DNA from: Candidatus Woesearchaeota archaeon
GTDB lineage: Archaea; Nanobdellota; Nanobdellia; SCGC-AAA011-G17; PNOQ01
DNA length: 64,000 nucleotides
Direction of reading: 5' to 3'
Assembly (NCBI GenBank): GCA_964408705.1
Contig: CAYPAI010000004.1
Location: forward strand, 57-64,056
The position numbers and the translations under genes are program-made. Positions 5,717-59,854 of this stretch are shown here, piece by piece. The notes below the pieces were generated by a model that worked only from the letters and a program-made list of their open reading frames with translations, had not been told where the DNA came from and searched no databases. How positions within the stretch are numbered: position 1 is the first letter of the stretch; each line of letters opens with the position of its first letter.

Positions 5717-5760
5717 AATATATAGATAAAAGATTAATTTAAAACATTTGCCCTAGTGTT

Positions 5761-6111
5761 TTATATACTTAGCTTAGAAAGTTTCAATTTTATTCTTTTT
5801 AATTCTTCATCTAGGGTGGTAGCTCTTTTTGTTTTTTTTGTTTTTGTATTTGATTTATCTTTTTTTAGAGGCTTTATCTCTCCAACAGTAGATTCAGGCA
5901 TTTCTTTATTTAATTTAAAAATTTCTCTTTTTATTTTTCTTGTGATAGTTCTTAATTTTTTTATTTGGGAAACTTTTTTATTTCTTATACTTTTATAATT
6001 TTCAAAAAATCTTAATATTTCAGTAGATTCTACTGCGGTTTCTAATAGTTTCCTCCTAAGAAAAATAGGTTGTTCGATTCTAACATACTCTGAGTTTTTT
6101 TTAGAAACCAT
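5761..6111 (-). CDS. Hypothetical basic, K-rich protein.
   Basis: 116-aa ORF. Its start overlaps the stop of the upstream gene by 1 nt (6111), suggesting an operon with the 193-aa gene. Confidence 0.4.
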   Translation of the reverse strand: MVSKKNSEYVRIEQPIFLRRKLLETAVESTEILRFFENYKSIRNKKVSQIKKLRTITRKIKREIFKLNKEMPESTVGEIKPLKKDKSNTKTKKTKRATTLDEELKRIKLKLSKLSI

Positions 6112-6692
6112 TATAGTTCAAACATTTTTTTGTCTATTGTTAAAAGATTATCTTTTATTTTTTCAATATCTGCTTTCCATTTGTTTAATTCTTTATCTTC
6201 TTCTTCTCTAGTCTGGTTTAGTTCAAGAAGAAGGTTTTCTGCATCTTTAGTTAAGTTTTTTATTTTATTCAAACTAGACTTAGCTGACTTATAATTATTA
6301 AGTTTTACAAATATTGGTTTTGAAGTTATTTCATCAGAGTTTACTTCTGTAGTATCTCTTTCAGAAATTTCTCTTAAATGAGGTAATGAAGCTTCTTTTG
6401 TTTTAGGGATATTTTTTAAGAATGAAGGTTTTCTTTTTGGAAGGTTCAAAGGTTCACCTTTTGCAGAAATATTTTGTTCTATAGATTTTTTTATATTTGA
6501 AAGACCACCTTCATATTTTGGGATTGGTTTATCTATTGCCCTCTTTATTTCTCCAAGTTCATGTTCATAACTTGGAAATCCTTTAGATTTTTCTTTCATA
6601 TCTGGTAAATTAGGTAGATTATGTTTATGATCTTCTATCTTTTTCTTATTTTGATTATTTTCTTCTTCTTTTTTCTTTTTGAATGGCCACAT
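6111..6692 (-). CDS. Hypothetical K/E-rich protein.
   Basis: 193-aa ORF transcribed divergently from tfe. Low-complexity charged sequence. Confidence 0.45.
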   Translation of the reverse strand: MWPFKKKKEEENNQNKKKIEDHKHNLPNLPDMKEKSKGFPSYEHELGEIKRAIDKPIPKYEGGLSNIKKSIEQNISAKGEPLNLPKRKPSFLKNIPKTKEASLPHLREISERDTTEVNSDEITSKPIFVKLNNYKSAKSSLNKIKNLTKDAENLLLELNQTREEEDKELNKWKADIEKIKDNLLTIDKKMFEL

Positions 6693-6849
6693 CTTTAGAA
6701 TCCTCTTTCTTTTGTTATTCTATTCTAAAAAAGATTATTAAAGTTTTTCTAATTATTATTGCGTAGTAACTTATCAAAAATTATCATATTTTTCAAAATA
6801 AAAAGCTTTTTAAGCTTTTTTCATAGAAATTATTGTATCGGGGGTTTAA

Positions 6850-7374
6850 ATGGAGTTATCTCAATCAGAAATAAATAGATTAGTGGAAGAAGTTGCAGGT
6901 AGAGACTCTGCTCCTGTGGCGGAACTTATAATCGTGAATGGGGAAAATGTGTCCGAGTTTTTAATAGCTGAAACGTTAGAGATTGGTATAAATCAGGTAA
7001 GAAATATTCTTTATAGGCTTCAAGAAAATAATTTGGTTACTTTTATGAGAAAAAAAGACAAAAAAAAGGGATGGTATATTTATTATTGGACGTTTAATAA
7101 AGTCCAAGCAAAGTTATTGATTAGTAAGTTGAAGAAAAAAAGAATACTTACTCTCAAGAAAAGACTTGAAAAACAAGCTGAAGATTTTTTAAGTTGTAAT
7201 AAGAAATGTTTAAGGATAACTTTTAATAATGCTCTTGAAAATGATTTTAAATGTCCCGAGTGTCATTCTGTTTTAAAACAAGTTAATAATAAGCGGCAAG
7301 TAGAATCTATTAAAAAATCTATTAAAAAAGAATTAGAAATGTTAAAGGATAACTCTAATGAAGCAACGGTTTAA
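6850..7374 (+). CDS. tfe: Transcription factor E (TFE alpha-like): winged helix plus zinc ribbon.
   Basis: The N-terminal winged helix (VAELIIVNGENVSEFLIAETLEIGINQVRNILYRLQENNLV...GWYIYYW) is typical of archaeal TFE. A C-terminal C4 ribbon is present (CNKKC...CPEC). Confidence 0.7.
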   Translation: MELSQSEINRLVEEVAGRDSAPVAELIIVNGENVSEFLIAETLEIGINQVRNILYRLQENNLVTFMRKKDKKKGWYIYYWTFNKVQAKLLISKLKKKRILTLKKRLEKQAEDFLSCNKKCLRITFNNALENDFKCPECHSVLKQVNNKRQVESIKKSIKKELEMLKDNSNEATV

Positions 7375-7375
7375 T

Positions 7376-7939
7376 TTAAGGCCCAAAGAAAACTTTTCTT
7401 CCATCAAAAGGTCCAAATGGAAGCATATTGAAGAAAAATAATAATCCATTAAGGTATTTGGTCATTTTTAATCCTGCTAATTGTTTTGTTGAAAATCTTC
7501 TATTCGATTTTAGTAAAAACATTGAGCTTAGCCAAAGTAAAAGATTTACGGCAGGACCAGAGAATGCTATTAACCTGTATGCTAATTCATTTGTAAATGC
7601 TAATTCACTGATTTGCACAAATCCTGGTGCAATTATTATGAATGGAGAGCCAATAAGTTTTAAAAATAAACCTAGGCCTAATCCAAATCCCCATATGTTA
7701 AAAGTTGCAGAATATCCGAAACCCATAGCTACAAATTTATGGGCAAGTTCATGAAGTACTACTGCAGGTGCAGTAACTAATATTGAAAATTTTAAGTCTC
7801 TAAAATCATATTTTCTTTTTTTCCTCATTCTTTCATATATATTTTTTGGTCTGAATGAGTAGAATCCGGTGAATATAAATCCAATAACAAAACTCATTAT
7901 TACTAATTTTATTATTTCTTCAAAAGTTATTAAGTTCAT
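7376..7939 (-). CDS. M50-family (site-2 protease-like) intramembrane zinc metalloprotease, short form.
   Basis: HELAH (HExxH) lies in a TM segment and is followed by FNMLPFGPFDG, which resembles the M50 NxxPxxxLDG motif. There are several TM helices. Confidence 0.6.
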   Translation of the reverse strand: MNLITFEEIIKLVIMSFVIGFIFTGFYSFRPKNIYERMRKKRKYDFRDLKFSILVTAPAVVLHELAHKFVAMGFGYSATFNIWGFGLGLGLFLKLIGSPFIIIAPGFVQISELAFTNELAYRLIAFSGPAVNLLLWLSSMFLLKSNRRFSTKQLAGLKMTKYLNGLLFFFNMLPFGPFDGRKVFFGP

Positions 7940-9999: not shown

Positions 10000-10250
10000 T
10001 TTAAAAAATTTTAGTAAGTGATTCCTTTCTTATCATGCTCCCGCACCTTAAAAAATCTTCAGATTGTTTTTCTCTTGGAAAAACAAACACACAATCACTT
10101 ACTAAACTTATATTGGTAAAACACCAACGAAAATCTTTTGAAAGATTATGATTTTTTAATTGTTAATTGTTAATACACTTCACTATATTTATATATTTTT
10201 TTATACTCTAGTAGTTGTTTTAAAAATTAATCTGTTTATTCACAGTTATA

Positions 10251-10260
10251 TTTATATATT
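10251..10260 (+). promoter_or_regulatory. Putative archaeal TATA box about 25 nt upstream of the 10280 start, implying a leaderless transcript.
   Basis: tttatatatt lies at -29 to -20 relative to the ATG. This spacing is typical of archaeal leaderless mRNAs. Confidence 0.3.
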
Positions 10261-10279
10261 AGTAACAATTTTATAGGTC

Positions 10280-12754
10280 ATGAAAAGAGGTATGTTAATT
10301 TTATTTTTGTTTAGTATTTTATTTATTTCGGGATGTGGACCTCAACAGTCAAGAGATGTTTTGAGTGCCGAAAAATTAGCTAGAACTCAGATAGATAGGA
10401 GTTTTAGTGATGGGTGGCAGTATGATTATGATTTCCAGCCAGACTGGCATGATGATTTCTGGGATCACTATAATAGTGCACGTATAGAAATGTGTTTAGC
10501 TGGTGACGATCAGGCTTGTGAAGATGTACCCCAATGGGAGTTTGAGTGTTATCAAAATCATCATCCTTGTGAACAATGGCCACAGTATGAAACTGGGGAG
10601 TGGGAGTGTGGTATTGGTGAATGTGGGGCTAGTTGTGGAGAGTATTTAGCTTGTGATGATGGTAATCCTTGTTCAAAAGATAGTTGTTCAGATCATCAAT
10701 GTGTCCATGAATATATGGAGCCTGGTCAAATGTGTGCTTATGGAAATACTTATAGTGGTGATAATAGTTATGGTAATTATCATAGATGTGTAACTGTTAC
10801 TGAAGCTTCTCTTACTGAGTTTGAAGCTGCATATTATTCTCCTCAAGGGGATGAGCTAGTGGAAAACGCATATTTAACAGAGACTATTGTATGTAGAGAG
10901 GCAGGTCAAGTTGGAGATGTTTGTGATGTGGATCTTAATTGTGCTGGTGCCGAAACACCAATTCCAACTGCTTTTTGTGATGATATAACTAATTCAAATA
11001 ATCCTACTTGTCAACTTCATCATTGTGGAAATGGGGTTGTTGAATCTCAGTTTGATGAAGAGTGTGATAATGGAGGATCAAACGATTGGTGGGGTTCAGA
11101 GTGTCTTCCTAACTGTAGATTGCCTAACCGAGAATCTAGAAGTAGTGTTAATATTCAAAATACAGGAATTCCTTGTGATTCAGATAGTGATTCTATTACA
11201 GAAGATAATTGGTATTGTCCTACTGAAATAGATGGTTTCATTACTCCTGATACAGAATGTTATCATGGTTTTAATATATGGGATGCAGGAACAATTGATG
11301 CAGAATTTTATAATTCAGGGGAAGGTCAAAGTGATAGGTGTGTAGATGGTCCAATGGGACTTAAATTCCTTGAAGAATATTGGTGTGATCTTTCTGAAAA
11401 TTGTAATGGTCAAGGATGTGTAATGAAGATGAGTAATATAGATTGTGCGGCATTAGTTATAGATCCTGAAACTGCAGAAGTAGATCCTTCAGTAGAAGAT
11501 TATAGTATAGTTTGTCCAGATGATGACAACCCTACTGCTCGTCCTCAATGTGTAGGTTATCCTTCTCCTCCAGATATGCCAAGTTGTGGTAATGGAATAT
11601 GTTCTGTTGAAGAATGTGTATGTTCTGATTCTGGTGATGAAACTCCTGAGTGTAATGGTGCAACTTGTGAATGGGAAGATTGTTTAACTTGTCCTGAGGA
11701 TTGTGGCGTTTGCCAAGGTAATGGAGAATGTGATAATGGAAATGGTAATGTTGCTAATGCTGGAGAAACTTGTTATATGGATTGTGTAGACTCCAATGGA
11801 GATGGCTCTCCAGACACAGATACTTGTCTAAGTCAAGATCTTTCTGGTGATAATTGTGGAAGTTGTTTAAATGATGAACACTGTGGTCCTTTTGAAACTA
11901 TTCAAAATTCTGCAGCATGTGCTATAAGTGATGAATTTCCTCTTTATGGTTATTTATATGTAGGAGGAATGGATGATGATTGGGGATGTGGACCTACAAC
12001 TTCTAGTAAAATGTATTGGGGAGGAGGACTTGATTCAGGAGCATTTAGTTGGGGCGATTGTGGTTGGTCAGGATCGGAATCAACAGATGGTTGTGTAAGT
12101 TTTGCTATGGAAGATGATTGTGGCTGTGGATGGACATGTAAGACATTTGGAACTGGATGTGATGATTGTTCTAAAGGAATTCATCAAAGAGGATATATTA
12201 TAGACTTTCAAAGATTGGGTTCATCTCAACCATTCACATACGGTAGTTTAAGTAACTGGGCAGCTTCATATGATGCTACTCAACCTGGAAATTGGTGGGA
12301 TTGGACTGGTTCTGATGCAGCATGTGTTCATGATGATCATAGATATTATCAAGGTATGGCCTCTCATGATAATTGGGCAACCTATTTATGTGCATTAGCT
12401 CAGAAACCTAGTGGTGCACAACTTTACAAATGGTTAAAGTGTGATAAGAATAATAAAGATGAAGTGCATTATGATACTCTTCATCAAAAAATGTATACTT
12501 GTACTGAAGATACTGTAGCTTGTACTTCAGGGTGTAGTGGTTTTACAAATTTTAAGAAGTATATATGGGAAGAATCAAGTTTCCTTGCAGGAAATTGTGG
12601 ACCAGGTAATATTCAAGAATTATATAGGCCTTCAGGCACTAGAGGAGATGAGGAATATAGATGTGTTTCATATGATATGAGTTGTAAGACTGAAAGAACA
12701 GGCCATTGTGGCGTTGAGCCTTATACTAAATACATGTGGGAGAAAGTTAGGTAG
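10280..12754 (+). CDS. Giant secreted, Cys-rich, acidic and Trp-rich lipoprotein with CGNG...EECD-type cysteine repeats.
   Basis: 824 aa. The leader MKRGMLILFLFSILFISGCG carries a lipobox (ISGC). Repeats include CGNGVVESQFDEECDNGG and CGNGICSVEECVC. The protein is very rich in Cys, Asp and Trp. Confidence 0.8.
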   Translation: MKRGMLILFLFSILFISGCGPQQSRDVLSAEKLARTQIDRSFSDGWQYDYDFQPDWHDDFWDHYNSARIEMCLAGDDQACEDVPQWEFECYQNHHPCEQWPQYETGEWECGIGECGASCGEYLACDDGNPCSKDSCSDHQCVHEYMEPGQMCAYGNTYSGDNSYGNYHRCVTVTEASLTEFEAAYYSPQGDELVENAYLTETIVCREAGQVGDVCDVDLNCAGAETPIPTAFCDDITNSNNPTCQLHHCGNGVVESQFDEECDNGGSNDWWGSECLPNCRLPNRESRSSVNIQNTGIPCDSDSDSITEDNWYCPTEIDGFITPDTECYHGFNIWDAGTIDAEFYNSGEGQSDRCVDGPMGLKFLEEYWCDLSENCNGQGCVMKMSNIDCAALVIDPETAEVDPSVEDYSIVCPDDDNPTARPQCVGYPSPPDMPSCGNGICSVEECVCSDSGDETPECNGATCEWEDCLTCPEDCGVCQGNGECDNGNGNVANAGETCYMDCVDSNGDGSPDTDTCLSQDLSGDNCGSCLNDEHCGPFETIQNSAACAISDEFPLYGYLYVGGMDDDWGCGPTTSSKMYWGGGLDSGAFSWGDCGWSGSESTDGCVSFAMEDDCGCGWTCKTFGTGCDDCSKGIHQRGYIIDFQRLGSSQPFTYGSLSNWAASYDATQPGNWWDWTGSDAACVHDDHRYYQGMASHDNWATYLCALAQKPSGAQLYKWLKCDKNNKDEVHYDTLHQKMYTCTEDTVACTSGCSGFTNFKKYIWEESSFLAGNCGPGNIQELYRPSGTRGDEEYRCVSYDMSCKTERTGHCGVEPYTKYMWEKVR

Positions 12755-24224: not shown

Positions 24225-24782
24225 TTGATTGTTATGAAAAAGTTTAGTTTTATTTTATGTTTATTTTTGGTAAGTCTTTTATTTATTTCAAGTTGCTACG
24301 ATAGCAATGTGTTCAGGAAGAATGATGTAGCAGAATTTTGTGTAGGTGAAGGTGAATCAATAGCTATAACTCACCCAGATTATGCCGAGGATTGTTGTGA
24401 AGGTCTTGTACAAATTTCTAATAAAGATCCAGACTTTTCGGGGGCAGGTATATGTACTGGAAATTGTGGAGATGGGATATGTAATGAAGATTCAGAATCA
24501 AGTTATAATTGTGAAATAGATTGTGAATTGAATGATTCTAGAAATACTTCAGATGATGTTTTTAATGATTTTGATCAAGATGCTTCAGAGGAAGAAGTAG
24601 AATCAAATACTGAAGGCCCCAGGTGGGAAGATGTTTATGAAGATACTCAGTGTAATGGGGATGATGCAATTGCCATAATCTTTGAATTGGTTCAACAATC
24701 TGCTACTAATGAGCAGATAATGGAAGCTATGTGTGATATTAATTGTGAAGAATTGAACCCTCAAGACTATATTTGTTCTTAA
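24225..24782 (+). CDS. Secreted Cys-rich acidic lipoprotein carrying the shared 66-aa EFCVGEGES...EIDCEL module.
   Basis: The signal peptide has a lipobox (LLFISSC). Nucleotides 24331..24526 are 100% identical to 39282..39477. Confidence 0.7.
   Translation: MIVMKKFSFILCLFLVSLLFISSCYDSNVFRKNDVAEFCVGEGESIAITHPDYAEDCCEGLVQISNKDPDFSGAGICTGNCGDGICNEDSESSYNCEIDCELNDSRNTSDDVFNDFDQDASEEEVESNTEGPRWEDVYEDTQCNGDDAIAIIFELVQQSATNEQIMEAMCDINCEELNPQDYICS
24331..24526 (+). repeat. Copy 1 of a 196-bp segment that is 100% identical between two different lipoprotein genes.
   Basis: cagaattttgtgtaggtgaaggtgaatcaatagctataactcacccagattatgccgaggattgttgtgaagg... ...gtgaaatagattgtga is identical to 39282..39477. 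Confidence 0.85.
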
Positions 24783-28214: not shown

Positions 28215-28661
28215 ATGAAAAGGGGCAATCTAGTTTTAACTTTATTTTTAATTAGTATTTTATTTATTTCTGGATGTGGTCCTGAAATGGCTCCAGGTAC
28301 AGGAAAAGATTGGGGAAATTCTGATAAAGAACAGTTTATCCCTCCTGCTCCTAAATCTTCTAGTTCTTCTTGTTATCAAGATGAAGATTGTGAAATTTAT
28401 GAGTTTTGTGATATGGATCCTGGTGCAAAGAGTGGTGAGTGTAAATATTTAACTCATTGTTATAATGATAAGCATTGTTCAAAAGATTTTTATTGTTCTA
28501 TTCCAAAAGGTGCAAAGAGTGGATTTTGTATGGAATTATACTCTCAAATCCCTAATAAAATAATGGATGATTTGGGTGGAAATTCTCCTGAACAATATTA
28601 TCCTTGTATAACTTATGGTGGATTAGACTGTGGACAGGATACTTGGGGACCAATTCTTTAG
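28215..28661 (+). CDS. Small Cys-rich lipoprotein with an internal duplicated DPGAKSGEC / PKGAKSGFC motif.
   Basis: The probable start is the internal Met, giving MKRGNLVLTLFLISILFISGCG (family leader plus lipobox). The ORF track starts 13 codons earlier, at 28176. Confidence 0.6.
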   Translation: MKRGNLVLTLFLISILFISGCGPEMAPGTGKDWGNSDKEQFIPPAPKSSSSSCYQDEDCEIYEFCDMDPGAKSGECKYLTHCYNDKHCSKDFYCSIPKGAKSGFCMELYSQIPNKIMDDLGGNSPEQYYPCITYGGLDCGQDTWGPIL

Positions 28662-35486: not shown

Positions 35487-36425
35487 ATGAAAATAAATAT
35501 TATTACTTTATTATTAATCATATTAGGTATTTTATCTTTTCAAGAGCTAGAGATTATAACTAATAGTCCTTATTTTTATTCTGATTCGGGAATTATCAAG
35601 TGTGAAGATGCTAAGATTGGAGATAGGGGTAGACTTAATGGGAATTTATATTTAGCAGTTGATGAAAAGATCCTTAGGTCTATGGATCCTGGTGAAAGGG
35701 GTGATGATTATACAACTTTTTGTGTGTCTCATGTTACAGATATGGGTTATTTGTTTTATAATGCGCATAGTTTTAATCAACCAATTGGATATTGGGATAC
35801 TAGCAATGTAGTAAATATGGGGTTTATGTTTTATAATGCAATAGATTTTAATCAACCAATTGGGTCTTGGAATACTAGTAATGTAGTTGATATGACTCAT
35901 CATTTCTATCTTGCAGAAAATTTCAATCAACCCTTAGATTCTTGGGATGTTAGTAAAGTGATAGATATGTCACGTATGTTTTCATATGCGTATAAGTTCA
36001 ATCAACCCTTAGATTCTTGGGATGTTAGTAGTTTAAAGTATATGCCTACTATGTTTGATAATGCAATAGATTTTAATCAACCAATTGGGTCTTGGAATAC
36101 TAGTAATGTGGAAAATATGGAGCTTATGTTTATGGATGCAGAAAATTTCAATCAACCAATTGGCTCTTGGGATGTTAGTGAAGTTACAACATTTCGTTAT
36201 TTATTTTATGATGCATATAACTTTAATCAACCCTTAGATTCTTGGAATACTAGTAATGTGGAAAATATGGAGCTTATGTTTGTTAATAGTTCATCTTTTA
36301 ATCAAGATTTGAGTGGGTGGAATGTAGATAAAGTTACAGATTATAGAAGATATGATTGTAATACTTTGGTTTGGGATGACAGTTATAAACCTTTTGAACC
36401 ATTTGGATGTGATGTTTTAGAATAA
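35487..36425 (+). CDS. Secreted protein built from about eight tandem 26-residue DUF285/BspA-like surface repeats.
   Basis: There is a signal peptide. The repeating unit is MF.NA..FNQPIGSWDTSNV.DM. The DNA is repetitive, with near-identical stretches of 38-60 nt. Confidence 0.75.
   Translation: MKINIITLLLIILGILSFQELEIITNSPYFYSDSGIIKCEDAKIGDRGRLNGNLYLAVDEKILRSMDPGERGDDYTTFCVSHVTDMGYLFYNAHSFNQPIGYWDTSNVVNMGFMFYNAIDFNQPIGSWNTSNVVDMTHHFYLAENFNQPLDSWDVSKVIDMSRMFSYAYKFNQPLDSWDVSSLKYMPTMFDNAIDFNQPIGSWNTSNVENMELMFMDAENFNQPIGSWDVSEVTTFRYLFYDAYNFNQPLDSWNTSNVENMELMFVNSSSFNQDLSGWNVDKVTDYRRYDCNTLVWDDSYKPFEPFGCDVLE
35760..36300 (+). repeat. Intragenic tandem repeats of about 78 bp that encode the 26-residue units.
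   Basis: ttcaatcaacccttagattcttgggatgttagta occurs at about 35925 and about 36001. tttaatcaacc...tcttggaatactagtaatgtggaaaatatggagcttatgttt occurs at about 36068 and about 36224. Confidence 0.7.
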
Positions 36426-37566: not shown

Positions 37567-37664
37567 TTTTAGTTATATTTTTATATTATGGATTATTATG
37601 AAACTTATGAAAAGAGGTATTTTGATTTTATTTTTGTTTAGTCTTTTATTTATTTCTAGTTGCG
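37567..37664 (+). repeat. Copy 1 of a roughly 98-bp promoter-proximal plus signal-peptide cassette (leader repeat).
   Basis: ttttagttatatttttatattatggattattatgaaacttatgaaaagaggtattttgattttatttttgtttagtcttttatttatttctagttgcg differs at 3 positions from 39067..39164. Confidence 0.8.
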
Positions 37665-39043
37665 ATTCTAAAATAAATTTTTTTACTAAAGAAATTACTT
37701 TAATTTGGGAAAAAGAAGTAAACACTTTTGCACATAGCTCTCCAGATTATGCTGATTTAAATAAAGATGGAGTGGAAGATGTGATCATAGTGGGAGGGAC
37801 AATTCCTTTTTTTGGAAGTTTAATTGCCTTAAATGGTGTTGATGGTTCCGTCTTATGGGAAAAACCACTACCAAATTTTTCTTCTGCAACTCCTGCTAAA
37901 CTTGAGAGCAGTGGTGATGATATCACTGATTTTGTTATTGGTATTTCCGCAGATACAAATACAGATTTAACTAGTAGAGATCCAGAATTATCAGATTTGA
38001 TTATGGTTAATGGTAAGGATGGTTCCTTATTATGGAGTTTTCGTAAACAAAATATAAATTTTACTTTTTCAGATACTCATTTTAGTTCAGCAGTTGTATT
38101 AGATGATCGTAATGAAGATGGAGTAGAAGATATAATTATATTGCAATCCGGAGGATTTGATGATATTCGTTCAGATAATCTAGGTTGGGACGATACTCAA
38201 AGGCCAACCTCATCATTATTTATTGTTTCAGGTAAAGATGGTAAAATTTTACAACAAAAAAATGTTGATGACGGAAAGGAAAGTTATGCTACCCCTGCCG
38301 TCTCTTCTAAGTTAGGGCTTATTATTTTAGGTACAGGTGGAGAAACTATCTCTGGAAATTTAATTGCTTTGGATTATTTTACATTAGAAGAAATTTGGAG
38401 AGTACCTTCTTATGGCATGGGGTTTATTTCTTCACCAGTTTTATCAGAGGATGAAAGATATGTTTTTGGAATTAGTTATAATGGGGAAATTTTTAAAATT
38501 GATGCCTTAAGAGGGAATATCATATGGAATAAAATTTGGTTTGACTCTATAGTTTATGCTTCGCCAACATTAGGTAAATTTAATGAAGATGAACATATTG
38601 ATGTAGTTGCCCTTATAAATTCAGATCGTTATTCTAATATATTTATAATAGACGGATTTAATGGTGAGATTATTTCTGAGTTTGAAAAAAGTAAAGGAAC
38701 TATTCCGACTCCACTTGTGCTAGATTATAACAATGATGGTATTGATGATTTGTTGACTTTAATGAATACTGGTTGTAGAATGGAGGGGAATGGTCCGCCT
38801 GATTGTAGTGGTTCATTACTCCAAATATGGGATGTTGGGTCTTCTAAAAAGATATTGGATATAAAGAGGTTACCTGGTTCTTTAGCTACACCATTTTTGA
38901 GAGATTTAGATAATGATAAAGAATTAGATTTATTAATAAATGTTATAGGTAAAGTCTTTAGATATGAGTTTAATTTAGATGTTGATGCAATAAATATGAC
39001 TTGGGATCATTTTCGTGGACCGTTTAGGCAAGGAAGAATATAA
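37598..39043 (+). CDS. Lipoprotein with FG-GAP/integrin-alpha-like calcium-binding beta-propeller repeats.
   Basis: The leader is MKLMKRGILILFLFSLLFISSCD. Repeats with D-x-N/D-x-DG-x-x-D loops include DLNKDGVEDVIIVGG, DDRNEDGVEDIIIL, DYNNDGIDDLLTL and DLDNDKELDLLINV. Confidence 0.7.
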   Translation: MKLMKRGILILFLFSLLFISSCDSKINFFTKEITLIWEKEVNTFAHSSPDYADLNKDGVEDVIIVGGTIPFFGSLIALNGVDGSVLWEKPLPNFSSATPAKLESSGDDITDFVIGISADTNTDLTSRDPELSDLIMVNGKDGSLLWSFRKQNINFTFSDTHFSSAVVLDDRNEDGVEDIIILQSGGFDDIRSDNLGWDDTQRPTSSLFIVSGKDGKILQQKNVDDGKESYATPAVSSKLGLIILGTGGETISGNLIALDYFTLEEIWRVPSYGMGFISSPVLSEDERYVFGISYNGEIFKIDALRGNIIWNKIWFDSIVYASPTLGKFNEDEHIDVVALINSDRYSNIFIIDGFNGEIISEFEKSKGTIPTPLVLDYNNDGIDDLLTLMNTGCRMEGNGPPDCSGSLLQIWDVGSSKKILDIKRLPGSLATPFLRDLDNDKELDLLINVIGKVFRYEFNLDVDAINMTWDHFRGPFRQGRI

Positions 39044-39066
39044 ATATACATTTTAGAATAAATTAA

Positions 39067-39164
39067 TTTTAGTTACATTTTTATATTATGGATTATTATG
39101 AAACTTATGAAAAGGGGTATTTTGACTTTATTTTTGTTTAGTCTTTTATTTATTTCTAGTTGCG
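39067..39164 (+). repeat. Copy 2 of the leader cassette, exactly 1500 bp downstream of copy 1.
   Basis: There are 95 identical positions out of 98. It covers the upstream AT-rich region and the first 22 codons (MKLMKRGIL.LFLFSLLFISSC). Confidence 0.8.
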
Positions 39165-40291
39165 GAGTTTGTACTAAGGAAGGTAAGGTGTGTGAGGATG
39201 GTACAGTTGTTGGAAGAGAAGGTCCTGATTGTGAGTTTGCAGAATGCCCTGATTTAGTAGAACTTCAAGAAGAAGTTGAACCAGAATTTTGTGTAGGTGA
39301 AGGTGAATCAATAGCTATAACTCACCCAGATTATGCCGAGGATTGTTGTGAAGGTCTTGTACAAATTTCTAATAAAGATCCAGACTTTTCGGGGGCAGGT
39401 ATATGTACTGGAAATTGTGGAGATGGGATATGTAATGAAGATTCAGAATCAAGTTATAATTGTGAAATAGATTGTGAGTTAGAACCAACGGAATATAATC
39501 TTGATCTAACTATGAAAGATCTTCCAGAAGGATATCAAGAAATAGAAGAATATTTGCCAAAATATGGCGAAGTTTTTGGGGTTCATTTTTTTGCTAGTAA
39601 TAAAGTTTCAGATGCAAAATTAATTTATGCAATGAATATAATGGCAGAATATTTAGATAATGATAAAGATGGATCGCCTGATAATCCTTTAGTTGTAGAT
39701 AGGATGGTTTCAGATAAAGTTGGTATGATGATGTTTGAAGACGAAGACGAAGACGAAGATTCCGAGTTATGGGAATCAGATTTAGAGATTATAGGTTTGG
39801 ATAACTTACAAGGATTATATGAAGATGAAACAAACCCATCTGGATCTAGATTTGATGCAAGTTTAGAAGAGATATTACACTTAATTACTCAAAGAGGTTA
39901 TGCAGAAGTATATCCAGAAATATTTGGAGAATTTTCAGGATCAACTGTTGCAAATTTAATGGACGAAGCAAGAGGTGGACATTTTGAGGAAGGTACAAAT
40001 TGGGATGAAGATAGTGGGGAAGGAGATAGTGCAGTTCCAAATTCTTATCCATCTGAATCTTGGTATCATTATGATGATGAAACATGTGACTATGCTTGTA
40101 TGATCACAGAGTATGTATATTGGTCGCTCACTTCTATCCTTGGAGCACAAGAAAATAGATGTTCAGACATAGATCATGAATGGGAGTTATGTACTAAAGA
40201 AAAAGTTCAAGAAAAAGATTCTGGAATATATAATCTTTTAACAGATCCACAGTATAAATTTGCAACTATTATTCCTGATGGATCATATTAA
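39098..40291 (+). CDS. Secreted Cys-rich acidic lipoprotein carrying the shared 66-aa EFCVGEGES...EIDCEL module.
   Basis: The leader MKLMKRGILTLFLFSLLFISSCG is nearly identical to that of the upstream gene. Nucleotides 39282..39477 are identical to 24331..24526. Confidence 0.7.
   Translation: MKLMKRGILTLFLFSLLFISSCGVCTKEGKVCEDGTVVGREGPDCEFAECPDLVELQEEVEPEFCVGEGESIAITHPDYAEDCCEGLVQISNKDPDFSGAGICTGNCGDGICNEDSESSYNCEIDCELEPTEYNLDLTMKDLPEGYQEIEEYLPKYGEVFGVHFFASNKVSDAKLIYAMNIMAEYLDNDKDGSPDNPLVVDRMVSDKVGMMMFEDEDEDEDSELWESDLEIIGLDNLQGLYEDETNPSGSRFDASLEEILHLITQRGYAEVYPEIFGEFSGSTVANLMDEARGGHFEEGTNWDEDSGEGDSAVPNSYPSESWYHYDDETCDYACMITEYVYWSLTSILGAQENRCSDIDHEWELCTKEKVQEKDSGIYNLLTDPQYKFATIIPDGSY
39282..39477 (+). 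repeat. Copy 2 of the 196-bp identical segment.
   Basis: It matches 24331..24526 base for base. The flanking sequence diverges immediately on both sides. Confidence 0.85.
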
Positions 40292-42646: not shown

Positions 42647-42690
42647 TAGAGATAGCCTTATATAATGATATTATATAAATACTTATTATT

Positions 42691-43158
42691 ATGAAAAAAA
42701 GAGGAATTTCTCCATTGATAGCTACTGTTCTTTTAATAGGTATGACTATAATGGTTTCAGTTATTGTTTTTACTTTTGTTAGAACAACTATCGAGGATAA
42801 AACTAGTGAAACTGAAATGCAAAGTAATATTCTTTTGGCATGTTCTCAAACTTTAGATCTCGAATATAATGATCCTATTATTTGTGGGGCTGATCAAAAC
42901 TTAATAGTTACAGTGTGGAATAGAAGTCCGATAGATGTAGTTGATCTTAAAATACAAGTTGTTTCCAATCAAGATTCAATGTTATTTGAGAGTGGAGTTT
43001 TAAATTCTTACAATAAAGAGTTATATGATATTGATCTTTCTTTCGGGGTGGGAGATATTAGTAGTATAATTTTAATTCCTACATTAGAGTTAGGTGATTC
43101 AGAGGGTACTTGTCCAGGAGAAGTTATAAACATTAATGATATCTTACCTTGTAATTAG
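42691..43158 (+). CDS. Archaeal type IV pilin-like protein with a class III signal peptide.
   Basis: The N-terminus MKKRG|ISPLIATVLLIGMTIMVSVIVF matches the canonical Pilin_N leader. This is [KR]G followed by hydrophobic residues, with cleavage after G by prepilin peptidase. The mature domain is small, about 150 aa. Confidence 0.7.
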   Translation: MKKRGISPLIATVLLIGMTIMVSVIVFTFVRTTIEDKTSETEMQSNILLACSQTLDLEYNDPIICGADQNLIVTVWNRSPIDVVDLKIQVVSNQDSMLFESGVLNSYNKELYDIDLSFGVGDISSIILIPTLELGDSEGTCPGEVININDILPCN

Positions 43159-43199: not shown

Positions 43200-46100
43200 A
43201 TGGATTTTAAAAAGAGTGGTCTATTTAGTTTTATAGTTTTAGTATTATTGTTTATTTCTGGTTGTGTTCCTCAATTTAATGCAGAAGATTATGCTCAACT
43301 CTCTGATGAATCCAAATTAGTTGTTAATAAATATTTTAGTGGTACTAGGGAAGTTGTTTGTGGACCTTGGGAATTTCACCAATCATGTGGAGAAGATAGT
43401 TACTGTGCAAGTAGTACCGGAGATTTAGATAAGTCAAGATTTAGAAGAGAATGTTGGAATACTGGCGGAGGCGGAGGCGGAGTTCCATGTCTATCTTGGC
43501 CAGATGGTCCTTGTAATGTACCTTTAAGTCCGATGGTAAACTCTGATGATGTTTTTTATGAAGAAGGTGATGATTTTATAGTTGTTAAAAGTAAGTCAGT
43601 TATGGAAGAACTTAGCTCATTATTTAATAAATATGGTGGAGTTAAATTAGCTCCAGTTAGATCTAAATCTGAGGTAGGTAAACATATTAAAGGAAATAGA
43701 GATCTTAGTAATGTTGAAAAGAAGCCATTACGTCCTAAACCTTTAGAAAGTAGGACATGGTATCAATATAAGTGTGAGACGGATTCTTTATGTACTAACA
43801 CTTGTGGTGATGGACGTTTAAATAATTTAAATAATGCTGCAGGAGGAGATTTAGGTTGTACTTCTGCGACTTCATTTAGCAATGGTCAAGAAGAAGAAAT
43901 ATATTTTAGTTCTTATCCAAATTGGGAAACTAACTCTCATGAAACTAGGGATAGGGGACAATGTTCTAATCTTTTTGGGCAAGGCGGTTCGTGGATTAAT
44001 GATAATGGGTTATGTACTGGGGAAAGTGATGGTGTATATGATTTTAATTTAGATGCTCCTGGTGTTTGGGTAGATGGAGATGGTGATGCTTATGCACAAA
44101 TGATTAATCCACATTATTATAATATATATGGTGAAATGGGTTATTGGACAAATTATTTCTTTTGTGGTAGTCAAGATAGTTTTTGTTATATTAATCTAGG
44201 TGGTGCTGCTCATTCAGAAGAAGGGACATTAACTATGAACAATGGTTTGGTTCTTAATCACTTTGTATATGTTGGTGATCATTATTGTCAAGGATGGGCA
44301 GATGGTGAAGTTTGGGTAGCTTGTAGTGAAGGTGAGGATGAATGTTATGAAGGTACCATAGATTATTCTCCTTATCATAATAGTGTGTTGGGTATTCCTG
44401 ACCAAGAAGGTTGGTTCACTTTTAATGATTTTGAGACAGTTAGTGCAGATTATTATGGTTCTAATGAATGGCAAGATGGTACTGTTGAGACTGCTTATGG
44501 TTACGGTTGGGTCGATGGAGAAGGAATTTTCCAACATGATTGTGCCAAAGGTCCTTTAGATTGTGATGCTGGTGGAGACTCTAGAGTTGAAGATTGTGAT
44601 TTAGGCACTCATCATAGTGATGCATATGGTAATATTGATTGGTATGATTCTGTACTTGATGATGCAGATGATTCTAATTCTAATTGTGATTATGGTGATC
44701 ACACCGAAGTATGTGCAGGATGGAAATATACTGGAGATTGGGGAGATTGTACAGGTGCTATACCAGGTACTGAGCCTGCAGGTGCTCTTTGTAATGATGG
44801 TTATGATAATGATTGTGATGGTTATGGAGATAGTTTTGATACGGAATGTGGATCATGTTTAGAAACTCAAGGAGGAGGTACTGAAACTGAAGTAAATGGA
44901 GATTATCAACAATGTGGAACTAATGAAGGATTGTGTGAGTTTGGAACACAATATAGGAGTTGTGTATTTGGTACTGGAGTTTCAGGAGATGGTTTATGGT
45001 CTTGGGAATCTGATTGGGGAGACTGTGGTGATGGTGCTTTAGGTGATTATGTTGGAGAAGCTTGTGAAGATGCTATTGATTGTCCTTCAAGTTGTGCTGA
45101 TGGGGTAGATAATAATTGTGACGGATTAGTAGATGGTGCTGATCCTCTTTGTGATGCTGATTGTTTATATGGAGTTGATTCTGATCAAACTCAAGCTTGT
45201 GGTTATGATTATGAAGTTGATGATGTAACTTCTGAGGAGACTACTGATGGAAATTGGGATAATGGAGTATGTATAACTGGTAGTCAAAGTAGATCTTGTC
45301 AAGTAGATGGTACTTGGGCTAATTGGGGTGCTTGTAGTCATACTGGTCCAGATGGTGCTGAGAATTCTGCAGCAGGAAATTGTGATGATGGTTATGATAA
45401 TGATTGTGATGGTACTGGTGATGATGGAGAATCTGGAGAAGATTGTGGAGAATGTTTAGAAGGTAGTTTATTTTATTTCACTAATGGTGATGATGATATT
45501 TGTGAAGAATCTTGGTGGGTAGGTGATCAATGTTCAGCAGGAACATTTACTTCTACTTGTACTTTTGATGGATCTGTGGGTGGTTATTTCTATCCTACAT
45601 GGGTTTCTAGTCCTTTTGACGGAAATTGGGAAGATTGTGAGTATGAAGATGGACCTGTAGATGAAATTTGTTGGAATGGGTTAGATGATGACTGTGATGG
45701 AATTCCAGATAGTGAAGAGGAAGTATGTGACTCTTTTGGTATTGAGTTCTTGAATGTTCCTTCGTTTAGTAATGAACAAGGAGATGAATCTTCAATTACA
45801 TTGTTTAATGATCAACCATTTATTATTAGTAGTTTTATGGAAACTGGAAGCCCTTCAAATATTAATAGTTTAGCTTATGCTAAATATGTTGGAGAGGGTG
45901 GAAATTGTGGTTACGAAGGAGAATATGGTCAGTCAGTTACTTATGATTTTCAATGTGGATTTATTCAAAGAGGTACTCCTGGATTTATTTTTGATTCTAT
46001 AGTTGGTCAACAAAACTCAATAGTTTCAGATTCTAATGGGGTTTATGCGGCTTATTCTAATTGGCTACCAGATGATGGGAATTACAAATTTAAGTTTGCT

Positions 46101-47077: not shown

Positions 47078-48904
47078 ATGTTTAAAAAATATGTCTTAAT
47101 ATCTCTATTTTTATTAGTTTTAATATTTGGTTCAACAATTTCTTTTGCTAAATCTAGGGATGACTATGGTGATCAAGATAGAATGAAGAATGAGGAATAT
47201 GAATCTGTTAGATCTAAAGTTGTAAAATTGATAAATGAGCAGTTTTTACAAAAACAAATTGATATGATAGTTATTAAGGATCCTAGTTCTTCTTTCCATA
47301 GATCAGTATGGTATGATGTTGGTTGTTCTTCTGGTACTGCTTATGAAGGTAATCTTTGTGCTGTCGGTCAACTTAGACAAATTTATGCAGAATGTTTGAA
47401 TAATGATCATTGTGGAGGAAGTGAGCCTTATTGTAAACTTAGTGGTTGTAATGATTATTCATGTGTAGAATGTCAGTCGGGTGCAGATTGTGAAAGTAAT
47501 GAGTATTGTAATCATTGTGGTACTTGTGCTGTGGCAGGAGGGGGTGGAGGAGTTCCATGTATACCTTGGCCAGAGGGTCCTTGTAATGTACCTTTAAGTC
47601 CCAAAAAAGGAGATAGTTATGTTAAACATATGATTGATCAATACTTTTTTACTGCTAATTCTTTATCAGAGTCTTTATTTTATTCAACATTAAAAGAAGT
47701 CAAATATAATCTTGATCGAGATCTTACAAATAAATCTCCTCGTGCCTCTTATCAATGTGTAGCGAGTGATAGTTGTGCAACTTGTGCAGATCTTTTAGAT
47801 AATGATTATTCGTCAACCCAAGATTGTGAATCTGCTGGGTGTGGTTATGATGATTGTGATAATAGTAGATATGATTTTGATAGACACGATAGAGATAGGA
47901 TGCAGTGTAGTAACTTTTTTGGAGAAAGCGGACAAGTTGCAGTTTTAAATGGGGTATGTGAAGGACAAACTCCGATAGGGGGGATTGTTCTTAGTGGAGA
48001 TCTTCCTTGTAACCCTCATGAAGGTTATGTTAGAATTTCGAATGCACATCCAGATTATGCGACTTATTTTTCAGGAGGAAATATTCCTTCTTTGGAAAAT
48101 TTAAATTATAACTTTTGTGGAAATTTGTATACAGATTGTTGTGTGGATATTAATCAGCCCGATTGGAGCGAGGATGGATCTCTTGGTGATCAAATTTTTT
48201 ATAATTATTGTGGGGATAATTATTGTCAAGGATGGTTAGATTCTTCAGATAATACTGTTTGTAGAGGTCCTTTCCATGATAATCCCAGCGGGGATTGTTA
48301 TGCAGATAGTAGTTGGAACCTTTGTGAAGATTCTCCTGAACTGTGTAGTTGGGATGGAGGTATTGCAGATATAAGAGAAACTCCTGAGTCTTGTTCTTGG
48401 ATAGATCATGCAAGTAATGTTTATTCTGATTGTCGTACTGGTTGTATACAATATGATGAACATGGTTTTGCAACTTCATTTGAGTGTGATTCAGCTATAC
48501 AATCAGATTGTACTATTCTTAACGCTGAATCTTGTCCAGATGGTTCAAATAAGGTTCAAGGTTTAACAATCAGTAGTGCAACAAATGGTCATTTAAGTGA
48601 AGAAGGATATGACTGGATTGTATGTTGTGATCCTAATTTATATACTGTTTCAACTTCAGGTACTTACGAGATGTTATCCTTATCAGGAGATTCAACAAAT
48701 TCTCATTTTGGTGTTTTTGGTACCACAGATTATATTAATTACTATATCGAAGGGTCAGGTATAAGTTCTGGTTGTCAAATTGTAGATCATGATGCTTGTA
48801 ATAATGAGGATGATTTTTGTTTTGTTTCAATTAGCGGTGAAGACAATGCCCATGTTGCAGATTGTATTCAAGAGGGGTATAGTTATAAATTGTGTTGTAG
48901 TTAA
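47078..48904 (+). CDS. Secreted Cys-rich protein that is a paralog of the N-terminal part of the giant upstream gene.
   Basis: The signal peptide is MFKKYVLISLFLLVLIFGSTISFA|KS. The ORF track starts 6 codons earlier, at 47060. It shares GGGGGVPCIPWPEGPCNVPLSP, DRMQCSNFFGESG and YCQGWLD blocks with 43200..47039. Confidence 0.8.
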   Translation: MFKKYVLISLFLLVLIFGSTISFAKSRDDYGDQDRMKNEEYESVRSKVVKLINEQFLQKQIDMIVIKDPSSSFHRSVWYDVGCSSGTAYEGNLCAVGQLRQIYAECLNNDHCGGSEPYCKLSGCNDYSCVECQSGADCESNEYCNHCGTCAVAGGGGGVPCIPWPEGPCNVPLSPKKGDSYVKHMIDQYFFTANSLSESLFYSTLKEVKYNLDRDLTNKSPRASYQCVASDSCATCADLLDNDYSSTQDCESAGCGYDDCDNSRYDFDRHDRDRMQCSNFFGESGQVAVLNGVCEGQTPIGGIVLSGDLPCNPHEGYVRISNAHPDYATYFSGGNIPSLENLNYNFCGNLYTDCCVDINQPDWSEDGSLGDQIFYNYCGDNYCQGWLDSSDNTVCRGPFHDNPSGDCYADSSWNLCEDSPELCSWDGGIADIRETPESCSWIDHASNVYSDCRTGCIQYDEHGFATSFECDSAIQSDCTILNAESCPDGSNKVQGLTISSATNGHLSEEGYDWIVCCDPNLYTVSTSGTYEMLSLSGDSTNSHFGVFGTTDYINYYIEGSGISSGCQIVDHDACNNEDDFCFVSISGEDNAHVADCIQEGYSYKLCCS

Positions 48905-48946
48905 ATTAGAAAGTTATATAAATGAAAATTTGTGAAATATAATATT

Positions 48947-50176
48947 ATGGAAAAAAGAGGAATTTCTCCATTGATAGCCACTATTTTACTTATTGGGTTA
49001 GTAGTAGTTATTGCTTTATTTGTATTTAATTGGATTGGTTCTGTTATTGATTCTCAAACTTCATCTACAGATGATTTAATGGAAACTTATATGACTGATC
49101 TTAGTTTTGATTTTGAGTGTCAAAATGATATAGATTTATCTGAAATTTATATAATGTTTAGTAATAACTATCATGGACCAATAGATTCATTTTTATTGTT
49201 GTATAATGATAGTACTATGTTATCCTTAGATGGTATTTTTTCACTTGAACCATATCAATCTGCTAGCTATACTGTAGTAAGTAAGAATAGTCAGTTTATA
49301 GAAGCTATACCATTAATTGAGATTAATGGAGAACTTCAATCTATTAATCATAAAAAAGTTTTGAGAACTTGTACAGACGTTGGTGCTCCTGTTGCATGTA
49401 GTGATGGGCTAGATAATGATGGTGATGGTTATTCAGATTTAGATGATCCTGATTGTGAAGGTGATTCTGAAGGTGAAGTAGAAGGTGGAACAATTTCTTT
49501 CAGTAGTTGTGATGATGAAAATCTAGATGATTTTTTTGATGATGGATATCCTTTTGTGTTAATGGATAACATAGATGATGTTGATGGAGATTGTTTAGTA
49601 TTTCAAAATATAGATGAAGGAATTACTATTGATTGCGAAGGTCATTATATTCATGGAGGTAATGATGTTGATTCTCAATATGGTATTTATATTTATAATT
49701 CAGATTATTTTGAGTTTAGGGATTGTGAAATAAGTGGTTTTGAGTATGGTATTGCTCTTCAAGAAGGTTCTGATTATAATATTTTTGAAGATATATCTTT
49801 GACTAACAATTGGGGCCAGGGTCAAGGTACTGGTTTGTTTTTTGGTGTACCTATGGGATTCGACCAGAATAATTATAATACTTTTAGAGATATTCTGATT
49901 GAAGATGGTTATTCTGGTTTTAAGTATAATGATGATGCTTTTGGATTTAATCCTTTTAATTTAGGTAATGAATTCATAAATATTCAGTTTGGTGATCACG
50001 AGGGTACTTCATTTTGGTGTTTAGGGAATACCCCTATCGATCTTGCTTCGGCTGCTACAGGGTTTGGAGTAGGATTAGATAGTGGAGATATATTTTGCGG
50101 AACTTCCGCTTGTCTTCAGACTTGCTATGAATCTTTAGGTCTTGATTTTGTAGGCTTAGGTTGTAGCGCATGTTAG
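48947..50176 (+). CDS. Type IV pilin-like protein with a class III signal peptide, fused to a Ca-binding-like CSDGLDNDGDGYSD motif and a parallel beta-helix-like C-terminal domain.
   Basis: The leader MEKRG|ISPLIATILLIGLVVVIALFVF is nearly identical to that of 42691. The ORF track begins 5 codons earlier, at 48932. The C-terminal region has repeating beta-helix-like rungs (GIYIYNSDYFEFRDCEISGFEYGIALQEGSDYNIFEDISLTNN). Confidence 0.7.
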   Translation: MEKRGISPLIATILLIGLVVVIALFVFNWIGSVIDSQTSSTDDLMETYMTDLSFDFECQNDIDLSEIYIMFSNNYHGPIDSFLLLYNDSTMLSLDGIFSLEPYQSASYTVVSKNSQFIEAIPLIEINGELQSINHKKVLRTCTDVGAPVACSDGLDNDGDGYSDLDDPDCEGDSEGEVEGGTISFSSCDDENLDDFFDDGYPFVLMDNIDDVDGDCLVFQNIDEGITIDCEGHYIHGGNDVDSQYGIYIYNSDYFEFRDCEISGFEYGIALQEGSDYNIFEDISLTNNWGQGQGTGLFFGVPMGFDQNNYNTFRDILIEDGYSGFKYNDDAFGFNPFNLGNEFINIQFGDHEGTSFWCLGNTPIDLASAATGFGVGLDSGDIFCGTSACLQTCYESLGLDFVGLGCSAC

Positions 50177-59023: not shown

Positions 59024-59854
59024 TTATATTAATAATCCTAATAAATAACCTATAAATATCCCTGCACCTATGAATGGCATTGCAGGATAGAATTTATTTT
59101 TTTTACTAAAAGTTAAAAGTCCTAAAAGGGCTAAAGCAGAAAATATTGCGATTAATGATGCATCTAAGAATCCAGTTTCTCTTAAAATTACTCCTGCAAA
59201 TAGCATCGGGAAACCTATATCTCCGCCTCCAAGTATTGCTGTTTTTGTAAATATTTTTTCTTTTTTCTTTGTTTTTTTATTAGTTATTATCTTTCTAGCA
59301 TAGGGTATTGCTAGTCCTGCAAATACTTTTGCCTTTGCTTGGAATTTGGCTAATTTTATCATATGTTTTGTTTTCCAAACTGCTATTGCGTCATATACCA
59401 TAATGATTAGTAAAAGAATACTTATTGAAAAAATACTTAAAATTGGAACAAATAATGAAGCTATTCCTGCATAGACAAATAGTTCAATAATATTATGGGA
59501 GATAATGCTTGGTCTAAAATATCTTAAGGATATAAAAGCTATTGAACTGATTAATGCGGCTTCTTGATTTATAAATGCTCCAAGAGATATAGTTAATAGG
59601 TATAAAGATGCTAATAAAAACCATATCTTCCATATTCTTTCTGCTCCAAAATTTATCAAGAGTAATGCAAGTCCTGTTGCAATTATTATTGCTATAGCCA
59701 TTGGCATATAACTTGTATCTTCTTGAATTTCAGGACTTTCTATACCAAAAGGTAATTCTTTTTCAAAGTAAGAATCAATTACATATAGTCCTATAAATTG
59801 TGCAACTAAAAATAAGCCAACAATTATTAATGAAACTTTTATATTATGCTTCAT
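59024..59854 (-). CDS. Presenilin/signal-peptide-peptidase-like intramembrane aspartyl protease (archaeal PSH, family A22).
   Basis: It has about nine TM helices. The YD motif is IIMVYDAIAV and the GxGD motif is LGGGDIGFP. A PAL-like segment YPAMPF follows. The motifs are in presenilin-like order and spacing. Confidence 0.65.
   Translation of the reverse strand: MKHNIKVSLIIVGLFLVAQFIGLYVIDSYFEKELPFGIESPEIQEDTSYMPMAIAIIIATGLALLLINFGAERIWKIWFLLASLYLLTISLGAFINQEAALISSIAFISLRYFRPSIISHNIIELFVYAGIASLFVPILSIFSISILLLIIMVYDAIAVWKTKHMIKLAKFQAKAKVFAGLAIPYARKIITNKKTKKKEKIFTKTAILGGGDIGFPMLFAGVILRETGFLDASLIAIFSALALLGLLTFSKKNKFYPAMPFIGAGIFIGYLLGLLI

Follow-up and report, generated by a model that had tools for sequence, protein, structure and literature searches.

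A near-identical promoter-plus-signal-peptide head before two adjacent, dissimilar lipoprotein genes in a Woesearchaeota archaeon

Two neighboring lipoprotein genes on contig CAYPAI010000004.1 of an uncultivated Candidatus Woesearchaeota archaeon begin with almost the same 98 bp of DNA, raising the question of why upstream and leader sequences should be so alike in front of mature proteins that share no detectable similarity. The genes and their shared 98-bp unit were analyzed within a 64,000-nucleotide stretch of this contig, here called the window. The unit is best read as a self-contained head for the expression and export of surface lipoproteins, the youngest pair of a wider leader family, and copied at the DNA level; we place the probability of this reading at about 0.72. 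The window has a GC content of 29.5% and its gene content is that of an archaeal chromosome, with ribosomal protein eL15 (best matches in archaeal ribosomes), aminoacyl-tRNA synthetases, tRNAs, a presenilin-type PSH protease and archaeal type IV pilin-like N-termini.

The 98-bp unit and the genes behind it

Positions 37567-37664 (copy A) and 39067-39164 (copy B) are identical at 95 of 98 bases (self-BLAST 96.9%, E 6e-41), so that the near-identity with three differences reported by the first-pass annotation of this DNA is borne out base by base. By chance, only some 1e-24 to 1e-37 pairs of such quality would be expected within 64 kb. Both edges are sharp: identity is at background level (2-5/10) within a few bases 5' of 37567, and again directly past 37664, where the repeat ends with the Cys codon TGC and one further G. 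The copies differ at 37576 (T/C), within the BRE/TATA motif (B recognition element and TATA box) described below, at 37615 (A/G; AGA/AGG, synonymous for Arg) and at 37626 (T/C; ATT/ACT, Ile/Thr). The unit comprises a 40-nt core promoter, 19 codons encoding MKRGIL(I/T)LFLFSLLFISSC, and one additional nucleotide. The exact 1500-bp offset between the copies, which the annotation had singled out, was rejected as a signal: it is the plain sum of gene 1 (1437 nt from its second ATG), a 23-nt spacer and the 40-nt promoter, and it is identical in the five further loci in which both copies could be located directly.

The promoter was characterized with a motif, GAAAnnTTTATAAA, learned de novo from 58 upstream regions elsewhere in the window, the three genes carrying this promoter being left out. 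The motif combines a BRE-like purine run with a TATA box, and starts at -34 to -43 from the start codon in 25 of the 33 good sites (modes -35/-36), a spacing which would imply that mRNAs in the window are mostly leaderless. In both cassettes the best match, a purine-rich BRE with a TATA box at the distance typical for this genome, is at -35 from the second ATG (37607 / 39107); measured from the first ATG the same element would be at -26, outside the usual range. AGTTAYATTTWTATATTA occurs at the same register also upstream of gene 10280 and of the threonyl-tRNA synthetase (ThrRS) gene. Because the motif is at its modal position, the JGI gene calls also begin at the second ATG and the older members of the leader family begin with MKRG, the true start is probably the second ATG, giving a signal peptide of 19 rather than 22 residues. 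The span had been described as an AT-rich upstream region plus the first 22 codons; the upstream part stands, and the coding part is probably three codons shorter. An exact look-up of the 397-aa form of protein 2 gave no match and the 394-aa form was matched, because gene callers took the second ATG.

No Shine-Dalgarno sequence is present in the cassette, and this absence together with the BRE/TATA spacing suggests that its mRNA is probably leaderless. Scans for bacterial sigma-70 promoters and terminators returned sites no more numerous than in shuffled sequence and were uninformative, the leader gave no indication of a conserved RNA structure (z-score +0.76), and the only Rfam matches were tRNAs. 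Judged by its motif, the cassette promoter is of the archaeal BRE/TATA type and not bacterial.

In translation, both signal peptides are of the Sec type, with a charged n-region (MKRG), a hydrophobic h-region (IL(I/T)LFLFSLLF) and the lipobox I-S-S-C. The latter agrees with the motif [LVI][ASTVI][GAS]C quoted in PMC12462473, where predicted lipoproteins are also described as prevalent in DPANN archaea. The Cys would become the lipid-modified N-terminus of both mature proteins.

Behind these heads, the mature proteins are unrelated, with no detectable similarity between them (BLASTP best E 0.24), in line with the first-pass annotation. Its assignment of protein 1 as an FG-GAP beta-propeller is likewise confirmed by three Pfam models scoring above their cut-offs: FG-GAP_3 (41.3 bits, cut-off 26.9), PQQ_2 (32.8, cut-off 27.6) and Beta-prop_FAM234A_B (36.8, cut-off 26.4). 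Homologs of gene 1 have at most 33% identity, the few with a source name are from Bacteroidota, and many carry a different lipobox-like N-terminus of their own ending in Cys; their mature part starts with a conserved L-I/V-W-D/N-K.

In mature protein 2, a unique Cys-rich stretch is followed by a 66-aa Cys module and then by a 270-aa domain (39479-40291), for which 968 homologs were found among marine archaea and bacteria. This domain matched no sequence in Pfam, NCBIfam or the PDB; its confident AlphaFold2 model (predicted local distance difference test score 93.5) gave only weak matches to zincin peptidase-like folds (E 0.013, template modeling score 0.36). The domain sometimes occurs in tandem within one protein, and an EExxH motif and several Cys, Tyr and Trp residues are invariant. 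The closest full-length relatives of gene 2 (P0012-P0026) have another leader, ending in ILFSGC, lack the Cys module and lie at non-syntenic loci. In related archaea, a lipoprotein gene with the 270-aa domain and a 97-aa open reading frame (ORF) are found between two pieces of a diphthamide synthase gene (around 9700-12100 in L028, L030 and L031), and the same diphthamide synthase arrangement is present in L029 at about 5450-7820; the flanking pieces (PF01866) encode 88 aa and then 183-261 aa, so that the synthase gene looks split or interrupted.

The arrangement is not peculiar to one assembly. Both copies, with the same three copy-specific bases, were found in seven other public contigs: L001 and L037 from ENA, L033-L036 from JGI, and an 83,351-bp JGI contig which encodes both genes. 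Short k-mer contigs break inside or just past the 98-bp repeat, as expected for a true repeat. L039 ends at 37681 and L041 at 37673, just beyond it, while L038 and L040 end at 37606 (37576+30), thirty bases past the first distinguishing base; these last two ends would fit a break at k = 31, on our assumption that this word size was used.

Probable DNA copying on top of a constrained leader family

Could selection on a promoter and a signal peptide alone have produced this likeness? At the 18 positions at which the two signal peptides have the same residue, 17 codons are identical, against 9.4 expected from the codon usage of the window (P about 4e-5), and some of these identical codons are rare ones, namely TGC (5% of Cys codons), TTG at two positions (12%) and CTT (18%). 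Upstream, 39 of 40 bases match, including the non-consensus spacer between TATA box and ATG. The identical codons, the shared rare codons and the identical non-consensus spacer argue for copying of the DNA and not for constraint on the peptide alone; the first-pass annotation had likewise called signal-peptide constraint as the sole cause unlikely, on the ground that noncoding upstream bases are conserved too.

The pair has relatives within the window. The pattern AGTNTTTTATTTATTTCNNGNTGY occurs five times against an expectation of zero, always on the + strand and each time ending a lipoprotein signal peptide. Other members of this family are 68-88% identical in signal-peptide DNA, and the member at 10240 matches the pair at 25 of 40 upstream bases, sharing the BRE/TATA core and not the spacer. 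The pair would thus represent a recent event at the DNA level superimposed on a constrained family.

The family also extends beyond the window. When 1.84 billion cluster representatives were searched exhaustively with a profile, 93 proteins (E <= 1e-3; representatives of clusters at 50% identity) were found which match only over approximately the first 30 to 60 residues. The family became visible by this exhaustive search; a padded leader profile in a word-indexed search gave only short proteins, and a 37-nt degenerate leader pattern had no matches in JGI metagenome contigs, a collection evidently without relevant contigs. The cargo of the 93 leader carriers ranges from 39 to 900 aa and includes leucine-rich repeat, DUF285, dockerin-like, collagen-like and many Cys-rich proteins. 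Many leader carriers (P0121-P0127, P0158, P0160, L005/L015) are predicted lipopeptides of about 40-90 aa, often rich in Cys; some of these may be truncated genes and others genuine small surface lipoproteins.

Only one GTDB genome, Candidatus Woesearchaeota CAYFNK01, has several copies, namely four genes with their own version of the leader. Two of them on different contigs (L005 and L006) are identical at 109 of 111 positions, over a tract that starts at about -48 and stops exactly at the Cys codon. Their flanks and cargo are unrelated, and they constitute an independent replicate of the promoter-plus-leader anatomy. Signal-peptide DNA groups by genome, with identities of 0.88-1.00 in CAYFNK01, 0.68-0.96 in the window and 0.67-0.77 between the two. 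From these comparisons, the copies at 37567 and 39067 appear to be the youngest pair of a lineage-wide family of stereotyped lipoprotein leaders, and not an isolated pair. The features at this locus and the related elements of the window are collected in Table 1.

Table 1. Positions of the two heads, their genes, and related elements within the window.
Feature	Position	Strand	Remarks
Cassette copy A: core promoter 37567-37606, signal-peptide coding 37607-37663, plus 1 nt	37567..37664	+	95/98 versus copy B, sharp edges both sides
Cassette copy B: core promoter 39067-39106, signal-peptide coding 39107-39163, plus 1 nt	39067..39164	+	same three differences in L001, L033-L037
BRE/TATA-like element GTTATATTTTTATA, copy A	37572..37585	+	best motif match, starts -35 from ATG 37607
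BRE/TATA-like element GTTACATTTTTATA, copy B	39072..39085	+	position weight matrix score 6.3 at -35 from ATG 39107
Gene 1: predicted lipoprotein precursor of 478 aa, counted from the second ATG; signal peptide MKRGILILFLFSLLFISS then C, Cys codon 37661-37663; mature FG-GAP/PQQ-like beta-propeller	37607..39043	+	Pfam, JGI gene calls
Gene 2: predicted lipoprotein precursor, 394 aa; signal peptide MKRGILTLFLFSLLFISS then C, Cys codon 39161-39163	39107..40291	+	JGI gene calls, homolog comparison
Older family member: promoter and leader of lipoprotein gene 10280-12754 (MKRGMLILFLFSILFISGC)	10240..10337	+	78% versus copy A over 98 nt, same register; spacer differs
Leader at the start of lipoprotein gene 24234-24782, family member (MKKFSFILCLFLVSLLFISSC; Cys likewise encoded by the rare TGC)	24234..24296	+	24251-24296 89% identical to 37618-37663
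Family member: leader of lipoprotein gene 28215-28661 (MKRGNLVLTLFLISILFISGC)	28215..28277	+	leader pattern
Cys-module repeat in gene 2 (encodes EFCVGEGESIAITHPDYAEDCCEGLVQISNKDPDFSGAGICTGNCGDGICNEDSESSYNCEIDCEL)	39282..39479	+	one base differs from 24331-24528, sharp edges
Cys-module repeat in lipoprotein gene 24234-24782	24331..24528	+	paralog of gene 2 module

Probable recombination at the locus and the readings weighed

Taken together, these features suggest the following reading. The first 40 bp of the unit are a whole core promoter, with BRE/TATA at -35, probably giving a leaderless mRNA; the next 57 bp encode the Sec-type lipobox signal peptide, and the unit ends one base past the Cys codon. 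Such stereotyped heads sit before very different cargo proteins across the lineage, and at this locus the DNA of one copy would have replaced that of the other or given rise to it by duplication. The event may have been short-tract gene conversion between neighboring leader paralogs, or leader capture, in which a copy of the head came to stand in front of one cargo. In consequence, both genes would have nearly equal basal promoters and use the same route of secretion and lipid anchoring, and would be expected to be co-expressed. The proposal of the first-pass annotation, cassette-like recombination or co-regulation through a shared promoter element, is therefore upheld as far as an expression-and-export leader before unrelated cargo, copied as DNA, is concerned, and co-regulation is a reasonable inference from the near-identical core promoter; a switching system, which such recombination could also denote, is not supported, as set out below.

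Recombination among these genes is probable on other grounds as well. Gene 2 and lipoprotein gene 24234-24782, 15 kb apart, have a 197-bp Cys module in common, and this module is mobile in relatives: P0177 has gene 24234's C-terminal domain but lacks the module, which P0171 contains in another context. At 24438-24440 the window reads TCG, and L042, L043 and L049 read GTA; this is the sole difference from the window in L042 (10.7 kb) and L043 (7.5 kb), with one more over 3.1 kb in L049, and the window allele equals that of the paralogous module at 39389-39391. In L035, L036 and the contig of P0357, moreover, the 5' flank of the 39xxx module is joined to the 3' flank of the 24xxx module, with two crossover positions, and the chimeric genes that result encode 211 aa and, in a partial gene, 181 aa; the reciprocal product was not found in the 90% cluster of protein 2. 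The patch and the junction contigs fit gene conversion, unequal recombination or a duplication of the 15-kb interval, and equally fit assembler path switches. The shared module and the confinement of strain differences to it are taken as an independent indication of recombination among these genes.

Several points weigh against reading the 98-bp pair as a head copied at the DNA level. Strong codon bias at 29.5% GC, together with selection on promoter and peptide, explains part of the similarity, and family members that are 12-30% apart demonstrate that constraint alone keeps leaders recognizably alike. The 3-nt patch and the junction contigs could be path switches of a de Bruijn graph inside a repeat. 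The copies differ at only three bases and a second species offers no orthologous cargo pairs, which is too little to distinguish gene conversion from duplication or capture or to give its direction; positional orthologs for a concerted-evolution comparison were not found, as the homologs of the gene 2 domain are non-syntenic with other leaders and the relatives of the FG-GAP protein have at most 33% identity.

A more far-reaching version holds that the head is the recombination handle of a homologous-recombination cassette system, by which DPANN archaea with small genomes place shuffled or horizontally acquired cargo behind a ready promoter, start codon and lipid anchor and thereby go on diversifying their surface lipoproteins, and that the junction contigs and the 3-nt patch are real population variants arising in this way. 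We regard this as speculative and, on present sequences, rather improbable. Somewhat less credit still is due to the proposal that a 1500-bp unit of FG-GAP cargo, spacer and head, possibly foreign, was captured by a single crossover in a resident head. Direct repeats around exactly one gene are the scar expected of such a Campbell-type insertion, and the distant, in part bacteroidotal FG-GAP homologs with their own lipobox-like N-termini are in keeping with it, as are the homologs of the gene 2 domain that occur elsewhere, non-syntenically, with another leader. However, the third-codon-position GC content of the FG-GAP gene (0.167) is like that of the rest of the window, so that any transfer would be old, no contig without the insert was encountered, and every assembly examined has the same three differences between the repeats.

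Constraint without any recent exchange of DNA, in which every strong promoter and efficient lipoprotein signal peptide of this lineage would look like this, is already disfavored and we consider it unlikely. It can draw on a BRE/TATA consensus that is shared with unrelated genes such as ThrRS, on a peptide that is stereotyped across 93 protein clusters, and on codon bias that by itself lifts synonymous identity to about 52%. Yet family members under equal constraint are much less alike in signal-peptide DNA and upstream, as given above, whereas the pair has in common rare codons, improbable on codon usage alone, and the unconstrained spacer between TATA box and ATG.

The genome is small, and DPANN archaea are in general regarded as attached to host cells, so that variation of the surface would be useful. 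The locus might then be a system of programmed antigenic or phase variation like those of Mycoplasma (vsp, vpma, vsa), in which the conserved 5' region is a recombination site for moving one expression site among silent cargo genes, and the picture of conserved upstream and signal-peptide sequence with divergent mature parts is alike (PMC2268961). Against this, each copy has its own BRE/TATA, all five leader copies of the window are in the same orientation with no inverted copy, no recombinase is encoded among the neighboring ORFs scanned, and all examined contigs that span both genes agree in gene order and in the three distinguishing bases. Recombination of the cassette as a switch is accordingly very unlikely. 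Two adjacent genes in the same orientation with the same head could also suggest that a single ancestral lipoprotein gene was duplicated in tandem and that the mature parts then diverged. This has still less in its favor, since the difference between the heads is only 3%, whereas the mature parts have no detectable similarity and fall into distinct families, each widely distributed. An assembly artifact from a collapsed or duplicated k-mer path, which the first-pass annotation had named as an alternative and which has some plausibility from contigs breaking at the repeat and from possible chimeric paths through the 197-bp module, is practically dismissed by the copy-specific bases of both copies in the seven contigs from NCBI, ENA and JGI sources.

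Further short mosaic tracts and repeats were observed in the window. Two archaeal pilin-like genes are 84% identical from about -33 to +36 (42658-42726 and 48914-48982) and encode the class III signal peptides MKKRGISPLIATVLLIG and MEKRGISPLIATILLIG, so that promoter and signal peptide are again alike together. Two adjacent genes for large Cys-rich secreted proteins share a 70-nt tract (43463-43531 and 47532-47601, 90% identical) encoding GGGGGVPC(L/I)(S/P)WP(D/E)GPCNVPLSP, a further mosaic tract shared by surface-protein genes. A DUF285 repeat protein (35487-36425) contains tandem 75-nt repeats at 35733-36344, an array in which several contigs break; it has 312 aa in the window and 237 aa in the sister assembly (L001/L032), three 25-aa units fewer, and because of this difference the repeat number is polymorphic between strains. 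An intergenic segment at 3748-3815, downstream of the alanyl-tRNA synthetase gene (AlaRS; 3929-5716, - strand), is 82-87% identical to the AlaRS-internal 5243-5310 and is a stray gene fragment. Finally, a presenilin-family intramembrane aspartyl protease (59024-59854, - strand) is PSH-like, scoring 80.8 bits, below the 125-bit equivalog cut-off; this protease could be relevant to signal-peptide clearance.

Significance and comparison with known systems

The archaeal pathway of lipoprotein biogenesis has become known only recently, and DPANN archaea are predicted to be rich in lipoproteins. The stereotyped head provides a sequence handle for listing the surface lipoproteome of uncultivated cells, and as such has already marked 93 protein clusters. 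Copying of the head at the DNA level suggests that compact genomes may equip new or foreign proteins with a promoter and an export signal in a single step, and the 98-bp head is a compact candidate promoter-plus-lipobox module for archaeal genetics. If it were only an occasional gene-conversion tract, it would be an ordinary footnote on the evolution of paralogs.

Conserved leaders on unrelated proteins have precedents in bacteria. YSIRK-type and KxYKxGKxW-type signal peptides are conserved across many unrelated surface proteins of Gram-positive bacteria, presumably for a dedicated route of export or sorting. They differ from the cassette in being conserved at the peptide level only; the cassette leader is accompanied by its promoter, and pairs of heads are near-identical in DNA. 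A closer resemblance exists with the Erp/Elp lipoproteins of Borrelia burgdorferi, which have an upstream homology box and in which the similarity of leaders has been explained by recombination. As in the cassette, near-identical upstream and leader sequences are found there on multi-copy lipoprotein genes whose mature parts form unrelated groups, a functional resemblance only and not homology. The Borrelia genes have bacterial sigma-70 promoters and operators, use the Lgt/Lsp pathway and reside on cp32 prophage plasmids of a pathogen; the cassette, in contrast, has an archaeal BRE/TATA, probably a leaderless mRNA, and a chromosomal housekeeping context in an uncultivated DPANN archaeon, with neither a cp32 location nor a bacterial promoter/operator. 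The Erp/Elp family itself is defined by OspE/F-like leader peptides (PMC12242104, citing Akins et al. 1999).

At the vpma locus of Mycoplasma agalactiae, the vsp locus of M. bovis and the vsa locus of M. pulmonis, 5' untranslated and signal-peptide regions are conserved within the gene family, in contrast to divergent and modular mature parts (PMC2268961), and this much of the organization is found in the cassette. These loci differ by a single promoter shared by silent genes, by a tyrosine recombinase (Xer1/Mbr/HvsR) encoded next to them and by inversions that are site-specific. None of these was found at the cassette locus: a scan of the ORFs around it revealed no recombinase, no inverted leader copy exists, and the examined contigs that extend past the site contain no structural variants at the 5' region. 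[quoted passage not shown] The recombination site of lpl, however, is a central conserved region of homologous ORFs, whereas the cargo of the cassette is non-homologous and the shared tract consists only of promoter and signal peptide.

Among archaea, the lipoproteins processed in the AliA/AliB system of Haloferax volcanii are like those encoded by the cassette genes in having a Sec-type signal peptide that ends in a lipobox Cys; the study of AliA/AliB deals with biogenesis enzymes and prevalence and describes neither stereotyped leaders nor promoter-plus-leader repeats (PMC12462473). A limited search of the literature found no description of archaeal promoter-plus-leader heads. The cassette is not a member of the Borrelia, Mycoplasma or S. 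aureus systems: it lacks the features of the Mycoplasma switch, and the parts from which it is built are archaeal.

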